Assembly: GCF_044324875.1 (NCBI RefSeq)
Contig: NZ_CP172185.1
DNA from: Escherichia coli
GTDB lineage: Bacteria; Pseudomonadota; Gammaproteobacteria; Enterobacterales; Enterobacteriaceae
DNA length: 64,000 nt
Direction: 5' to 3' (one strand)
A program made the translations under genes and the position numbers. This document shows positions 8,994 through 15,215 of this stretch, piece by piece; the stretch's first letter is position 1, and each line of letters opens with the position of its first letter. The notes below the pieces were generated by a model. The model was not told the DNA's origin. It did not search any database and saw only the letters and a program-made list of their open reading frames with translations.

Positions 8994-9102
8994 ATGTCCC
9001 CGCTTTTTGACCGGCCCCGGCGATAACCAGGAAACGCATTTCCGGTTGCGTCACCACAATGCTGAAGGGCTTCGGTAAACCCTCATTCATTTCATCCATC
9101 AG

Positions 9103-9133
9103 GCCGCGTCTTCTCCGTGAGACGCGGCTTTTT
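9103..9133 (+). terminator. putative intrinsic terminator downstream of the GTPase gene
   Basis: GCCGCGTC-loop-GACGCGGC stem followed by TTTTT. Confidence 0.55.
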
Positions 9134-9178
9134 CATTGATTACGTCATTCAGTCTTAACCACTGATAAGGAGCAAAGT

Positions 9179-9997
9179 ATGCGATTAGCCAGTCGTTTTG
9201 GTTATGCGAACCAGATACGCCGTGACCGTCCGCTGACCCGTGAAGAGCTGATGCACCATGTGCCCGGGATTTTCGGGGAAGATAAACACACCTCCCGGAG
9301 CCGGAACTATACATACATCCCCACCATCACCGTGCTGGAAAGCCTGCAGCGGGAAGGCTTTCAGCCATTCTTCGCCTGCCAGACCCGCGTACGTGACCCG
9401 GGTCGCCGGGGGTATACCAAACACATGCTGCGTCTGCGCCGTGACGGGGAGATAAACGGACAACATGTCCCTGAAATTATTCTGCTCAACTCTCATGACG
9501 GTACCTCCAGCTACCAGATGCTGCCGGGTTACTTCAGGTTCGTCTGCCAGAACGGATGCGTCTGCGGTCAGTCTCGGGGGGAAGTGCGTGTTCCGCACCG
9601 GGGAAATGTGGTGGACAGAGTCATTGAAGGGGCTTACGAGGTGGTGGGCGTGTTTGACCGGATAGAGGAGAAGCGTGATGCCATGCAGTCGCTGGTCCTG
9701 CCGCCACCGGCACGCCAGGCGCTGGCACAGGCGGCACTGACTTACCGTTATGGTGACGAACATCAGCCCGTCACCACCGCCGACATTCTGACACCACGAC
9801 GCCGGGAGGATTACGGTAAGGACCTGTGGAGTGCTTATCAGACCATCCAGGAGAATATGCTGAAAGGCGGGATTTCCGGTCGCAGTGCAAAAGGAAAACG
9901 TATCCATACCCGGGCCATTCACAGCATTGATACCGATATAAAACTCAACCGCGCATTGTGGGTGATGGCAGAAACGCTGCTGGAGAGCATGCGCTGA
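9179..9997 (+). CDS. DUF932-family protein (YfjQ/YafZ-like)
   Basis: 272-aa protein in the position and with the general sequence character of YafZ/YfjQ homologues that follow the GTPase in CP4-type islands. Confidence 0.6.
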   Translation: MRLASRFGYANQIRRDRPLTREELMHHVPGIFGEDKHTSRSRNYTYIPTITVLESLQREGFQPFFACQTRVRDPGRRGYTKHMLRLRRDGEINGQHVPEIILLNSHDGTSSYQMLPGYFRFVCQNGCVCGQSRGEVRVPHRGNVVDRVIEGAYEVVGVFDRIEEKRDAMQSLVLPPPARQALAQAALTYRYGDEHQPVTTADILTPRRREDYGKDLWSAYQTIQENMLKGGISGRSAKGKRIHTRAIHSIDTDIKLNRALWVMAETLLESMR

Positions 9998-10088
9998 TGC
10001 TGTTTCCCTGAAAGTGCAGCCCTGACTCACGTCTGTACCAGTCCCCAGGCATTCTTCCATTCATTTACTTTTTATAAGGAATCATCTC

Positions 10089-10574
10089 ATGACAACCTTT
10101 TCGCATAGCTCCACCACACCTTCTGTTTCCGCAACTACTGCATCAGGGAATAACCAGTCTCAACTGGTTGCCACTCCCGTCCCTGATGAACAGCGCATCA
10201 GCTTCTGGCCGCAGCACTTTGGCCTCATTCCACAGTGGGTGACCCTGGAGCCCCGTGTCTTCGGCTGGATGGACCGTCTGTGCGAAGACTACTGCGGTGG
10301 TATCTGGAATCTGTACACCCTGAACAACGGCGGGGCATTTATGGCCCCCGAACCGGATGATGATGATGACGAAACATGGGTACTGTTCAATGCCATGAAC
10401 GGTAACCGCGCTGAAATGAGCCCGGAAGCCGCCGGCATTGCCGCCTGTCTGATGACGTACAGTCATCACGCCTGCCGTACGGAGTGTTATGCCATGACGG
10501 TTCATTATTACCGTCTGCGGGATTACGCCCTGCAGCATCCGGAATGCAGCGCCATTATGCGCATCATTGACTGA
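10089..10574 (+). CDS. antirestriction protein (ArdB/KlcA-like; YfjX/YafX family)
   Basis: 161-aa acidic protein (DDDDDETW...), position between the DUF932 gene and the radC-like gene as in K-12 CP4 islands. Confidence 0.6.
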   Translation: MTTFSHSSTTPSVSATTASGNNQSQLVATPVPDEQRISFWPQHFGLIPQWVTLEPRVFGWMDRLCEDYCGGIWNLYTLNNGGAFMAPEPDDDDDETWVLFNAMNGNRAEMSPEAAGIAACLMTYSHHACRTECYAMTVHYYRLRDYALQHPECSAIMRIID

Positions 10575-10589
10575 AAGGGGGCCGGAACA

Positions 10590-11066
10590 ATGCAACAGAT
10601 TTCCTTTCTGCCCGGAGAAATGACAACCAGAGAGCGCAGCCTCATTCAGCGGGCCCTGAAAGCCCTGGACCGCCATCTTCATGAACCCGGCGTGGCCTTC
10701 ACCTCCACGCATGCGGCACGGGAATGGCTGATTCTGAACATGGCGGGACTGGAGCGTGAAGAATTCCGGGTGCTGTATCTGAACAACCAGAATCAGCTGA
10801 TTGCCGGTGAAACCCTCTTCACCGGCACCATCAACCGCACGGAAGTCCATCCCCGGGAAGTGATTAAACGCGCCCTGTACCACAATGCCGCTGCCGTGGT
10901 GCTGGCGCACAATCACCCGTCCGGTGAAGTCACACCCAGCAAGGCAGACCGCCTTATCACGGAACGTCTGGTACAGGCGCTGGCCCTGGTGGATATCCGG
11001 GTGCCGGACCATCTGATAGTCGGTGGCAGCCAGGTTTTCTCCTTTGCCGAACATGGTCTGCTTTAA
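10590..11066 (+). CDS. RadC-like JAB-domain protein (YeeS/YkfG/YfjY family)
   Basis: JAMM motif region HNHPSGEVTPSKADRLITERL typical of RadC-like proteins. Confidence 0.75.
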   Translation: MQQISFLPGEMTTRERSLIQRALKALDRHLHEPGVAFTSTHAAREWLILNMAGLEREEFRVLYLNNQNQLIAGETLFTGTINRTEVHPREVIKRALYHNAAAVVLAHNHPSGEVTPSKADRLITERLVQALALVDIRVPDHLIVGGSQVFSFAEHGLL

Positions 11067-11128
11067 CCCGTCACAACCACATCACACCTGTTTTCACTTT
11101 TATCTTCTGTCTTCAGAGGTATCCCATT

Positions 11129-11350
11129 ATGAAAATCATCACCCGTGGTGAAGCCATGCGTATTCACCAACAGCATCCTGCATCCCGTCTTTTTCCGTTC
11201 TGTACCGGCAAATACCGCTGGCACGGTGGCACTGAAGCGTATACCGGTCGTGAAGTGCAGGATATTCCCGGTGTGCTGGCCGTGTTTGCAGAACGCCGTA
11301 AGGACAGTTTTGGTCCGTATGTCCGGCTGATGAGCGTCACCCTGAACTGA
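11129..11350 (+). CDS. DUF987-family protein (YeeT/YkfH-like)
   Basis: 73-aa protein in the conserved position between the radC-like gene and the CbeA/CbtA module. Confidence 0.6.
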   Translation: MKIITRGEAMRIHQQHPASRLFPFCTGKYRWHGGTEAYTGREVQDIPGVLAVFAERRKDSFGPYVRLMSVTLN

Positions 11351-11364
11351 GTCAGGGCATTCTG

Positions 11365-12009
11365 ATGAGCAGAATTATCACCATCACAGTGTATACGCTG
11401 GATGAACTTTCCTGCCCGGCACGGGAAAAAGCCCGCGACGGGTACCGTCAGCATCATGCTGACAGCAGCTGGTATGAAAACGTGTATGAGGACTTCAGGG
11501 CGGTCTGTGACATTGTCGGGATTGCCCTCCGCCAGCGAGTTATCCGGCTCAGCAGCGGCAGGTTTATGGAAGAGCCGTGCATCTGGTTCAGCGGCTTCAG
11601 CAGCCAGGGGGACGGAGCCTGTTTTGACGGGCGCTGGCACTGGCAGCCGGCAACAGCCAGGAAAATCCGGGAATATGCCCCGCAGGACCGTGAGCTTCAT
11701 CGTATCGCGGATGCCCTGCAGGCGGTGCAGAAGCGTAACTTCCGGCAGCTTCAGGCTGAAATCCGCCACCGGGGACGCTACTGCCATCCGTACAGCATGG
11801 ATATCACCGTCACCCGGGACAGTCCGACTGGTCAGGCTATGACAGCCGATGCGGAAGCCGCTGTCAGCGAAGCCCTGCGCGACCTGGCCTTCTGGCTGTA
11901 CCGTCAACTGGAAAACGAGTACGACCAGATGACCTCAGACGCCGCTGTGGATGAGGCCATTCTCATCAATGCATACATCTTCACCGAAACCGGTCAGCGC
12001 ACCGGCTGA
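11365..12009 (+). CDS. hypothetical protein (214 aa) between DUF987 and cbeA
   Basis: Plus-strand ORF with mixed, protein-like composition. The competing minus-strand ORF 11164..11907 is Pro/Ala/Arg/Gly-rich, as expected of an antisense artefact in GC-rich DNA. No family recognised. Confidence 0.45.
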   Translation: MSRIITITVYTLDELSCPAREKARDGYRQHHADSSWYENVYEDFRAVCDIVGIALRQRVIRLSSGRFMEEPCIWFSGFSSQGDGACFDGRWHWQPATARKIREYAPQDRELHRIADALQAVQKRNFRQLQAEIRHRGRYCHPYSMDITVTRDSPTGQAMTADAEAAVSEALRDLAFWLYRQLENEYDQMTSDAAVDEAILINAYIFTETGQRTG

Positions 12010-12058
12010 CCTGTCATCGTTAAACCATTCTTAACCACTTTTCAGAGAGGATTTTATC

Positions 12059-12427
12059 GTGTCAGACACACTCTCCGGGATAACTCATCCCGACGACAAT
12101 CACGACCGCCCCTGGTGGGGGCTTCCCTGCACAGTGAGGCCCTGTTTTGGCGCCCGTCTGGTGCAGGAGGGTAACCGCCTGCATTACCTTGCCGACCGCG
12201 CCGGCATCAGAGGCCGGTTCAGCGATGCGGATGCATACCATCTGGACCAGGCCTTTCCGCTGCTGATGAAACAACTGGAACTCATGCTCACCAGCGGTGA
12301 ACTGAATCCCCGCCATCAGCATACCGTCACGCTGTATGCAAAAGGGCTGACCTGCGAAGCCGACACCCTCGGCAGTTGTGGTTACGTTTATCTGGCTGTT
12401 TATCCGACGCCCGAAACGAAAAAGTAA
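12059..12427 (+). CDS. cbeA: type IV toxin-antitoxin system antitoxin CbeA (YeeU/YfjZ/YagB family)
   Basis: MSDTLSGITHPDDNHDRPWWGLPCTVRPCFGARLVQEGNRLHYLADRAGIRG... near-identical to remembered K-12 YeeU. Confidence 0.85.
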   Translation: MSDTLSGITHPDDNHDRPWWGLPCTVRPCFGARLVQEGNRLHYLADRAGIRGRFSDADAYHLDQAFPLLMKQLELMLTSGELNPRHQHTVTLYAKGLTCEADTLGSCGYVYLAVYPTPETKK

Positions 12428-12517
12428 ACCACCGGAATAACCTTCTGCTCCGGCCAGGTGTTTTCACCACGCCACTCTCCCCATAATTTAATCTCTCATA
12501 TCAGGAAAATCTTCAGT

Positions 12518-12928
12518 ATGAAATTATTACCCGACACACATGTACGGGAGGCATCGTGCTGCCCGTCTCCCGTCACCATCTGGCAGACACTGCTCATCCG
12601 TCTGCTGGACCAGCACTATGGCCTCACACTGAATGACACACCGTTCGCTGATGAACGTGTGATTGAGCAGCATATTGAGGCCGGCATTTCACTGTGCGAT
12701 GCGGTGAACTTTCTCGTTGAAAAATACGCACTGGTACGTACCGACCAGCCGGGATTCAGCGCAGGAGCCCCGTCGCAGTTAATCAACAGCATCGATATTC
12801 TCCGGGCCCGCCGGGCAACAGGCCTGATGACACGTAATAACTACAGAATGGTAAATAACATTACCCTGGGTAGCATCCGGGGGCGAAACGATGAAACTTT
12901 CCCTGACGCTGGAAGCCGACAGCGTTAA
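12518..12928 (+). CDS. cbtA: type IV toxin-antitoxin system toxin CbtA (YeeV/YkfI/YpjF family)
   Basis: Internal Met of ORF 12458..12928; ...[62 protein letters not shown]... matches remembered YeeV. C-terminus differs from K-12 and overlaps the next gene. Confidence 0.8.
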
Positions 12929-13316
12929 CGTACAGGCGCTGAACATGGGGCGAATTGTCGTTGACATTGATGGTGTTGAGCTCACTGAACTGATTAACAA
13001 GGTCGCTGAAAACGGTTATTCACTCCGCGTGGTGGATGAACGTGACGCTACCGAAACACCGGCGACTTCTGCCAGCTCTCATCAGTTGCCGGAAGACAAT
13101 ACAGTGATACAGAGCGTGATGCCATTAACCACTGAAACAGCGCTGGATATCCTCATTGCGTGGCTGCAGGACAATATCGACTGCGGGTCCGGAATTATTT
13201 TCGACAACGATGAGGATAAAACGGATTCGGCAGCACTGCTGCCCTGTATCGAACAGGCCAGAGCAGATATCCGCACCCTGCGCCAGCTGCAGCAGCTTCT
13301 GCACCAGAACCGGTGA
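12891..13316 (+). CDS. YeeW-like protein (DUF5983)
   Basis: 141-aa ORF immediately after and overlapping cbtA, the position of yeeW in CP4-44. Confidence 0.55.
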
Positions 13317-13343
13317 GTCTCACTCACCACGATTCATTAACCT

Positions 13344-13377
13344 GACGCCAGTCCGAATACGACTGGCGTTTTCATTT
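13344..13377 (+). terminator. putative intrinsic terminator after the yeeW-like gene
   Basis: GACGCCAGTC-loop-GACTGGCGT followed by a T-rich tract. Confidence 0.5.
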
Positions 13378-13399
13378 ATCAGAAAAAAGGGAAACAGTT

Positions 13400-14248
13400 A
13401 TGTCAGACATCACCATCTCCCGTCCGGAAGCGCTTAACGGACATACGGACCTTATCTGCTCCACAGATATCCGGCACGTTGTGACGGTACGGAATGAAGC
13501 ACTGCAACAAACCGAAAGGCTTATCCGGCAACTGGCAGAAATCTCAGCAATGACAGAAAGTATTGGCGGTAAAACTGTCCGGGACTGGGCCGTGAAACAG
13601 GATTTTCGCTGTGGCTGCTGGCTGATGGAAAAACCGGAAACCGCAATGAAAGCCATCACCCGTAACCTTGACCGCGAAATCTGGCGTGACCTGATGCAAC
13701 GCTCCGGGATGCTGAGTCTGATGGATGTACAGACGCGTGATTAATGGTACCGTTCACTGGAGGAGGATAATTTCCCGGAAATCAGCGAAGCGAATATCCT
13801 GAGCACGGCTGAACAACTGCACCGTAACAGGTATGAAATGGCTGAACGCGGCGTCATCAACCTCTTCAGGGGACTGAGCCGGACGCACAACAGCAGGTCA
13901 CCCTGTAAATTCGGCAGTAAGATTATCCTCAACAATCTGGTGAAATGGGACTGGTGGGGATTTGGTCTGAACCATGGTCCGCAGGCCGGGCAGCTTGCCG
14001 ACCTGGAAAGGATACTGTATCAGTTCAGCGGCAAACCCATACCCGATTACAGGGACAATATTATCATTCGTCTGGATGAGCACATCCGGTCCGTTCAGGG
14101 TAAAGCGTGCTATGAGGATGAGATGTTCAGCATCAGATACTTCAGGAAGGGCTCCGCGCATATCACGTTTAAACACCCGGAACTGGTGGAGAAGCTGAAT
14201 GCTGTTCTGGCGAAACATTATTCGGTAAAGTTCCATTCTTCTGTATAA
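13400..14248 (+). pseudogene. DUF4942-family gene interrupted by an in-frame TAA (13742-13744)
   Basis: ORFs 13400..13744 and 13838..14248 are in the same frame and joined by an open in-frame stretch (…WYRSLEEDNFPEISEANILSTAEQLHRNRYE…) apart from the single stop; the DUF4942 assignment is from memory of genes that follow cbtA/yeeW. Confidence 0.5.
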
Positions 14249-14555
14249 ACTTACACATCATGGGTATTGTGTCTCGCCCTGAACAAGGCCGACAGGTATA
14301 CTGCATTCGCTGAGTCATTACAGATAATGCCTCAACTGAGTTCAATCTACCTCCATGTACAACAACAATACGATGGGGGCTACATTGGGGGCTATATTTT
14401 CAAGAAAAACGTATATAGTTCAATTAAATCAATAAACTGAAAAAATTTCACCATTCCCCTCTGGGGAGAGGATTAGGGTGAGGGGCGCAAACCCGCTCCG
14501 GGGCCATTAATTACCCTGAATTTGATTATTTACACCACGGTAACAGGAACAACAT

Positions 14556-15215
14556 ATGCAGTTTGACTGGAGTGCCATCTGGCCTGCCATTCCGCTTCTG
14601 ATTGAAGGTGCCAAAATGACCCTGTGGATTTCGGTCCTCGGTTTGGCTGGCGGTCTGGTGATCGGATTGCTGGCAGGTTTTGCACGCACCTTCGGTGGTT
14701 GGATAGCCAACCACGTCGCGCTGGTCTTTATTGAAGTGATCCGCGGCACACCTATCGTCGTCCAGGTGATGTTTATTTATTTCGCCCTGCCGATGGCGTT
14801 TAACGACTTACGCATCGACCCGTTTACTGCGGCGGTGGTCACCATCATGATCAACTCCGGCGCGTACATTGCGGAAATCACGCGTGGTGCGGTGCTGTCT
14901 ATTCACAAAGGTTTTCGTGAAGCAGGACTGGCGCTCGGTCTTTCACGTTGGGAAACCATTCGCTACGTCATTTTACCGCTGGCACTGCGTCGTATGCTGC
15001 CGCCGCTGGGTAACCAGTGGATCATCAGTATAAAAGATACCTCGCTGTTTATTGTTATCGGCGTGGCGGAACTGACCCGTCAGGGGCAAGAAATTATTGC
15101 CGGTAACTTCCGCGCCCTTGAGATCTGGAGCGCCGTGGCGGTGTTCTATCTGATTATTACCCTGGTGCTGAGCTTTATTCTGCGTCGTCTGGAAAGAAGG
15201 ATGAAAATCCTGTGA
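14556..15215 (+). CDS. glnP: glutamine ABC transporter permease GlnP
   Basis: 219 aa; matches remembered K-12 GlnP. Confidence 0.95.

Follow-up and report, generated by a model that had tools for sequence, protein, structure and literature searches.

A frameshifted CbtA (YeeV)-family type IV toxin gene with a replaced C-terminal tail in an Escherichia coli island

The toxin gene of a CP4-44-like island module in Escherichia coli ends late and runs into the gene behind it. Is this long end a common form of the toxin or the product of a frameshift? Does it change the activity of the toxin, and does the overlap couple the translation of the next gene? These possibilities were raised by an original prediction, and they were followed up computationally in the whole 64,000-nt stretch of DNA, which is called the window here. 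The module consists of the following features (window positions).

10089-10574, + strand, antirestriction gene (ORFs and annotation of segment L001)
10590-11066, + strand, RadC/JAB gene (ORFs and L001 annotation)
11129-11350, + strand, DUF987/YeeT-like gene (ORFs and L001 annotation)
11365-12009, + strand, gene of a 214-aa protein (ORFs and L001 annotation)
12059-12427, + strand, intact CbeA/YeeU-family type IV antitoxin gene, 122 aa (Pfam PF06154, E=7.8e-55)
12518-12928, + strand, frameshifted CbtA-family toxin ORF, 136 aa, ATG start (ORF list and translation)
12891-13316, + strand, yeeW-like ORF, 141 aa, a DUF5983 N-domain fused in frame to a DUF957-type protein (Pfam and alignment)
13344-13370, + strand, terminator-like hairpin with a T-run just 3' of the yeeW-like ORF (consensus scan, a pattern match only)
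13400-14248, + strand, DUF4942 gene with an in-frame TAA at 13742-13744 (Pfam matches on both halves)

The segment 9542-14485 was 98.8% identical to the annotated island segment L001. The order in L001 is DUF932, antirestriction, RadC, DUF987, the 214-aa protein, the YeeU-family antitoxin, CbtA (frameshifted), DUF5983 (partial), DUF957, and DUF4942. This CP4-44-like order was also found in L002 and L005-L009. The CP4-44 module of K-12 resembles the window in its upstream order of RadC, DUF987, and antitoxin, in the CbeA/YeeU antitoxin before the toxin and in a yeeW-type gene after it. Unlike K-12 CP4-44, the window has the extra 214-aa gene between DUF987 and the antitoxin. This ORF, which did not match any Pfam or NCBIfam model, is broken in several relatives by a frameshift or an internal stop, and its RefSeq names are 'antitoxin of toxin-antitoxin stability system', 'hypothetical protein', and DUF8835 domain protein. 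NCBIfam likewise gave no match for the toxin, the antitoxin, or the yeeW-like ORF. The antitoxin matches WP_039023579.1 exactly, a protein annotated in L001, L002, L003, and L018, and the antitoxin ORF precedes the toxin on the same strand by 90 nt. The TAA codon in the DUF4942 gene is aligned with ACA in the intact gene of L003, and PGAP annotates the interrupted gene as two CDSs in L001. The hairpin at 13344-13370 has 10 pairs, 6 of them G-C. A sigma-70-like promoter scan of 9000-14600 found none, a result which says nothing about expression.

The toxin ORF, an E. coli cell-shape toxin gene, belongs to a well-known family and is already marked as frameshifted in public annotation. Its residues 1-112 covered the whole profile of Pfam CbtA_toxin PF06755 (1-112 of 112, E=1.6e-59), and the score of 199.2 bits was far above the cut-off of 25. 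Phe65, which is invariant at this position in alignments A1 and A2, is present. The window toxin is 83% identical to CbtA (YeeV) of K-12 CP4-44, with the full PF06755 domain and F65 conserved, and it shares 57% and 63% identity with YkfI (CP4-6) and YpjF (CP4-57) of the same family. Residue 15 is Cys in the window toxin, YkfI, and YpjF, whereas it is Arg in K-12 CbtA. YkfI and YpjF carry C15 and still block elongation (PMC5624674). R15, which is specific to K-12 CbtA and serves its MreB interaction, is therefore no defining residue of the family. No relative of the toxin at E<=1 came out of a PDB sequence search, which leaves no solved structure in which to place the tail. The window toxin departs from its relatives at the end. 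The usual relatives have 124-126 residues with a tail of GK[HY]P[EG]AK[QR] among the protein cluster representatives. The canonical end GK[HY]PxAK[QR] with its ATGA stop/start is lacking in the window toxin. Conservation in the family alignment reaches G118-K119 and becomes variable beyond, and K119, nearly invariant among intact CbtA-type sequences, is missing from the window allele. This non-canonical C-terminus is a defect at the level of the allele and no ground for leaving the CbtA/YeeV family.

The cause was located by DNA alignment with the intact relatives ZYB39 (L005), MS7163 (L006), ATCC 25922 (L007), Br_112_kylling (L009), and K-12 (L004). The features at the toxin end are given below.

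12871-12872, + strand, 1-nt deletion site, where the AAG codon of Lys119 has lost one A (DNA alignments with L005, L006, L007, L009, and K-12)
12872-12925, + strand, out-of-frame tail, codons 119-136 (translation and alignments A1/A2)
12879-12883, + strand, G-run GGGGG, putatively Shine-Dalgarno-like, 7 nt 5' of the downstream ATG (read from the sequence)
12891-12928, + strand, 38-nt overlap of the toxin and yeeW-like ORFs in different frames (ORF coordinates)
12892-12894, + strand, ancestral toxin TGA, now out of frame (PGAP pseudogene end and intact relatives)

A single gap was seen across the toxin gene, where the window reads CTGGGT-AGCATCC and the intact relatives read CTGGG(T/G/C)AAGCATCC. 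At the Lys119 codon, GGTAAGCAT of the intact form is changed to GGTAGCAT in the window. When the A was put back in silico, a 125-aa protein ending in ...NNITLGKHPGAKR*, that is ...GKHPGAKR, was obtained. The deletion swaps the last seven residues (KHPGAKR) for 18 unrelated residues, and the part of the tail from 12891 onward is the 5' end of the downstream gene read in another frame. Translation of the window toxin passes the ancestral TGA and halts at the TAA at 12926-12928. PGAP in RefSeq describes identical or near-identical sequences as 'TA system toxin CbtA family protein, frameshifted' and places the extent of the pseudogene at 3001-3377 of L001, which corresponds to 12518-12894 of the window. 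The original prediction of an altered and extended C-terminus, with a frameshift relative to close relatives as the thing to look for, was thus borne out: the protein has 136 residues and the deletion separates it from every intact relative. The predicted 38-nt overlap with the next ORF agrees with the coordinates. The statement that K-12 YeeV ends about 13 residues earlier was right as to the shorter end and slightly off in the figure. K-12 CbtA has 124 residues in NC_000913.3, ending in ...NNITLGKYPEAK, so the difference is 12 residues, and the window toxin is frameshifted after G118. The intact 125-aa alleles of EC0585 (WP_000771610.1), ZYB39 (WP_000854919.1), and Br_112_kylling (WP_000847116.1) represent the same gene in the same module with the same antitoxin. 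In contrast to the window allele, they keep the A of AAG and end in GK[HY]PxxK[QRP] with the TGA inside ATGA.

The frequency of the allele, whose junction reads GGGTAGCATCC against GGGTAAGCATCC in the intact form, was determined in 5,426 complete E. coli genomes. The 31-mer of the deleted junction occurred in 44 genomes at 48 places, and the matching 32-mer with the A present occurred in 1,246 genomes at 1,331 places. The whole region, counting all copies of the family, was found in 4,928 genomes at 13,142 places, with a median of three paralogous copies per genome. The frameshift allele is present in 0.8% of genomes and makes up about 0.4% of copies. The long form is not the common form but a rare one, carried by a minority. 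An alignment with homologues had been suggested as the way to find out whether this C-terminus is the usual one, and it speaks for the deviation, with 124-126 residues as the usual length and 44 genomes standing against 1,246. The exact 136-aa protein was present on at least 999 public contigs. A sequencing error is thereby excluded as the source of the deletion. Over the 351 nt that precede the deletion, 37 complete genomes were 100% identical. The window carries a CbtA (YeeV)-family type IV toxin gene in a frameshifted form that is real and inherited. As a raw count, 23 of the 44 complete genomes with the deleted junction had a chicken or poultry-meat source, several APEC strains among them.

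The islands with the frameshift were found at several chromosomal sites, namely tusA/yhhQ, cadC, parDE, and ygfF/bglA, and at glnP in the window. The mosaic toxin loci L008, L013, L016, L017, and L018 were compared. Three different 5' parts are found in front of the frameshifted 3' segment, namely the window type, the K-12 type (TUM9803, PK-F-10122, and a Logan contig), and a third type (23CRST013). The reverse combination is seen in EC0585, which has an antitoxin identical to that of the window and a window-type 5' part, its first 82 residues matching exactly, followed by an intact K-12-type 3' end. The frameshift allele is paired with at least five antitoxin variants, all of them intact in complete genomes. 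Since the partners of the 3' segment and of the antitoxin vary in these mosaics, the toxin gene is shuffled by recombination among paralogous island copies, and the frameshift moves with its 3' segment. Counts of synonymous and non-synonymous differences among the frameshift alleles gave no estimate of selection, because the differences are recombined blocks of older polymorphism and not new mutations.

Three more 1-nt deletions within the last ten cbtA codons, those of variants P0003, P0020, and P0021, open the same long frame from different sites. GGGG is reduced to GGG in L012, the T of a CTG is lost in L010, and a base is lost in a GG(A/G)GG run in L011, an E. fergusonii genome. In two of the three, namely in L011 and L012 by locus and in P0003 and P0021 by variant, the coding sequence of the upstream antitoxin is divided over two frames. 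The three were rejected as solid recurrence, since each was read from one contig and the antitoxin is broken in two of them. These deletions may be assembly errors.

The overlap of the two ORFs was considered next to the intact arrangement. In every intact relative, the downstream ATG (12891-12893) and the toxin TGA form ATGA, a 4-nt overlap, which in K-12 stands against the 38 nt of the window. Such an ATGA stop/start overlap is the classic layout for termination-reinitiation coupling. The frameshift removes it, and the toxin now terminates 34 nt inside the downstream gene. Ribosomes translating the toxin would pass the downstream ATG out of frame. The termination-reinitiation coupling at ATGA would be lost, and the truncated yeeW-like gene would depend on its own Shine-Dalgarno-like G-run, which is GGAGG in most intact relatives in the alignment. 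The original prediction that the overlap may couple the translation of the downstream gene has to be reversed in direction: the ATGA layout belongs to the intact arrangement and is what the frameshift takes away. From the arrangement of the reading frames, the stop-start coupling would be ancestral, and the frameshift would weaken or change it rather than create it.

The yeeW-like ORF is itself a shortened form. Its sole Pfam match was DUF5983_N PF25638 of the YeeW family (E=7.8e-30), and it shares this N-terminal domain and the same ATG with the YeeW/DUF5983 proteins. The C-terminal domain PF19419 is absent, so that the ORF runs in frame into the DUF957-type gene. In the full-length relative L007, the DUF5983 gene encodes 162 residues with both PF25638 and PF19419, and a separate 65-aa gene follows. 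The alignment with the full-length relative shows a gap of about 280 nt, the stretch of this missing C-domain. The yeeW of K-12 is a different remnant of 64 residues. The DUF957 label comes from the PGAP annotation alone; Pfam gave no match for this part even at E<=1. PGAP splits the one open frame into a partial pseudogene and a DUF957 CDS. The short DUF5983-DUF957 fusion form is common in E. coli, with 297 members in its cluster. Literature searches found no paper on the frameshift allele of the toxin or on the function of yeeW. A paper on F-plasmid translocation deals with the antitoxins and not with the toxin C-terminus.

Is the 136-aa protein still a toxin? The sequence change begins at residue 119, past the Pfam domain of residues 1-112, and F65, which is needed for the interaction with FtsZ (Heller et al. 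2017, PMC5624674), is kept. YkfI and YpjF are toxic and bind FtsZ (PMC5624674, PMC5371832). Both lack a C-terminal tail, their ends falling at alignment positions 113 and 109, which is 11-15 positions ahead of the frameshift site. The main argument is that the tail would be dispensable because these two paralogues are toxic without it. Moreover, C-terminal GFP leaves toxicity in place, as in His6-CbtA-GFP and in CbtA, YkfI, and YpjF fused in this way (PMC5624674). An AlphaFold2 model was built from 35 sequences and was weak (mean pLDDT of 60, pTM of 0.44). In this model, the last helix spans 108-116 and residues 118-136 form a coil with pLDDT below 50. The changed tail is probably disordered, a suggestion drawn from a weak model. 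The protein is probably still an active toxin, given its intact domain and F65, a tail that starts past the points where YkfI and YpjF end, the variability of the family after G118-K119, and the toxicity of C-terminal GFP fusions, and the coil model is consistent with this. The suggestion that the new C-terminus may affect toxin activity found no support in these comparisons, and the effect on the toxin is probably small, as the change falls after the domain, past the ends of the tail-less paralogues and in a low-confidence coil. The determinant of FtsZ binding and the toxin fold would be untouched, and the part replaced would be a dispensable tail. The 136-aa toxin would be neutralised by the intact CbeA-type antitoxin encoded upstream. 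The swap of the tail would be tolerated and near-neutral, without a new function. The rare allele moves among the paralogous island copies through recombination.

There is evidence against an active toxin, and it points to an inactivated pseudogene, in which the frameshift destroys the function or stability of the toxin while the whole module decays. The PGAP flag, which implies the same, is set at all identical or near-identical loci. The near-invariant K119 is gone. The adjoining DUF5983 gene is truncated and the DUF4942 gene has a premature stop; this decay of the neighbours fits a module-wide loss of function. Relaxed constraint is suggested by at least three further 1-nt deletions within the last ten codons in other assemblies. 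The structure model in favour of a harmless tail is weak, and an older report, as it is cited in PMC5371832, describes a C-terminally His-tagged YpjF as non-toxic. However, the complete Pfam domain and F65 are kept, the region concerned is absent altogether from the toxic YkfI and YpjF, and toxicity survives the fusion of GFP to the C-terminus. No second disabling mutation was found in the 351 nt 5' of the deletion, which are identical in the 37 complete genomes, and the antitoxin is intact at every inspected frameshift locus from a complete genome. An inactivated gene is less likely in our judgement, yet a serious rival of the active toxin, which we prefer.

It is very improbable that selection favoured the basic tail of 18 residues or the overlap of 38 nt through toxin stability, antitoxin control, or yeeW expression. 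Several different deletions do lead into one long frame, the frameshifted 3' segment has reached several island backgrounds and chromosomal sites, and 23 of the 44 carrier genomes are poultry-derived. Nevertheless, the allele is rare in genomes and in copies, the tail sequence is dictated by the coding frame of the downstream gene, and the tail differences among the alleles follow the yeeW polymorphism. The other deletion variants are single contigs, two with a broken antitoxin, which may be assembly errors. By our own estimate, chance alone would leave an alternative frame open over 12 codons in about half of all cases. A bolder form of this idea would see a selected isoform instead of decay, with a basic tail that alters the half-life or the control by CbeA and uncouples the yeeW-type gene, spread by island recombination notably in poultry-associated E. 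coli. It is a long shot. An error of sequencing or assembly in the window, or a programmed ribosomal frameshift restoring the normal protein, is hardly credible. Single-base indels are common as assembly artefacts and a G-run lies near the site, but 44 independent complete genomes and the contigs mentioned above share the identical sequence, and the base was lost from an AA dinucleotide and not from a homopolymer run. Programmed frameshifting was rejected on reading the sequence, as CTGGGTAGCATCC shows neither a slippery heptamer nor a stop-codon-stimulated +1 site.

The locus adds a further allele, decaying or tolerated, to a prophage-island toxin that is well studied, and is in this sense ordinary. 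The pseudogene flag may hide a toxin which is probably still active, and this affects how many toxin-antitoxin systems are counted in E. coli genomes. The frameshift allele is also a handy natural marker for recombination among the paralogous CbtA islands in E. coli.

The surroundings of the island were also inspected. Its right end lies at about 14455-14556 in the glnH-glnP intergenic region, where the homology to K-12 begins 37 nt short of the glnH stop. Coverage of at least 80% of this 10-kb region was reached in 18 complete genomes. The genes glnH, dps, and rhtA are found nowhere in the 64-kb window. Therefore, glnPQ is parted from glnH and its upstream promoters. An island in which all four genes are intact stands at this glnP site in the related genome Br_112_kylling.
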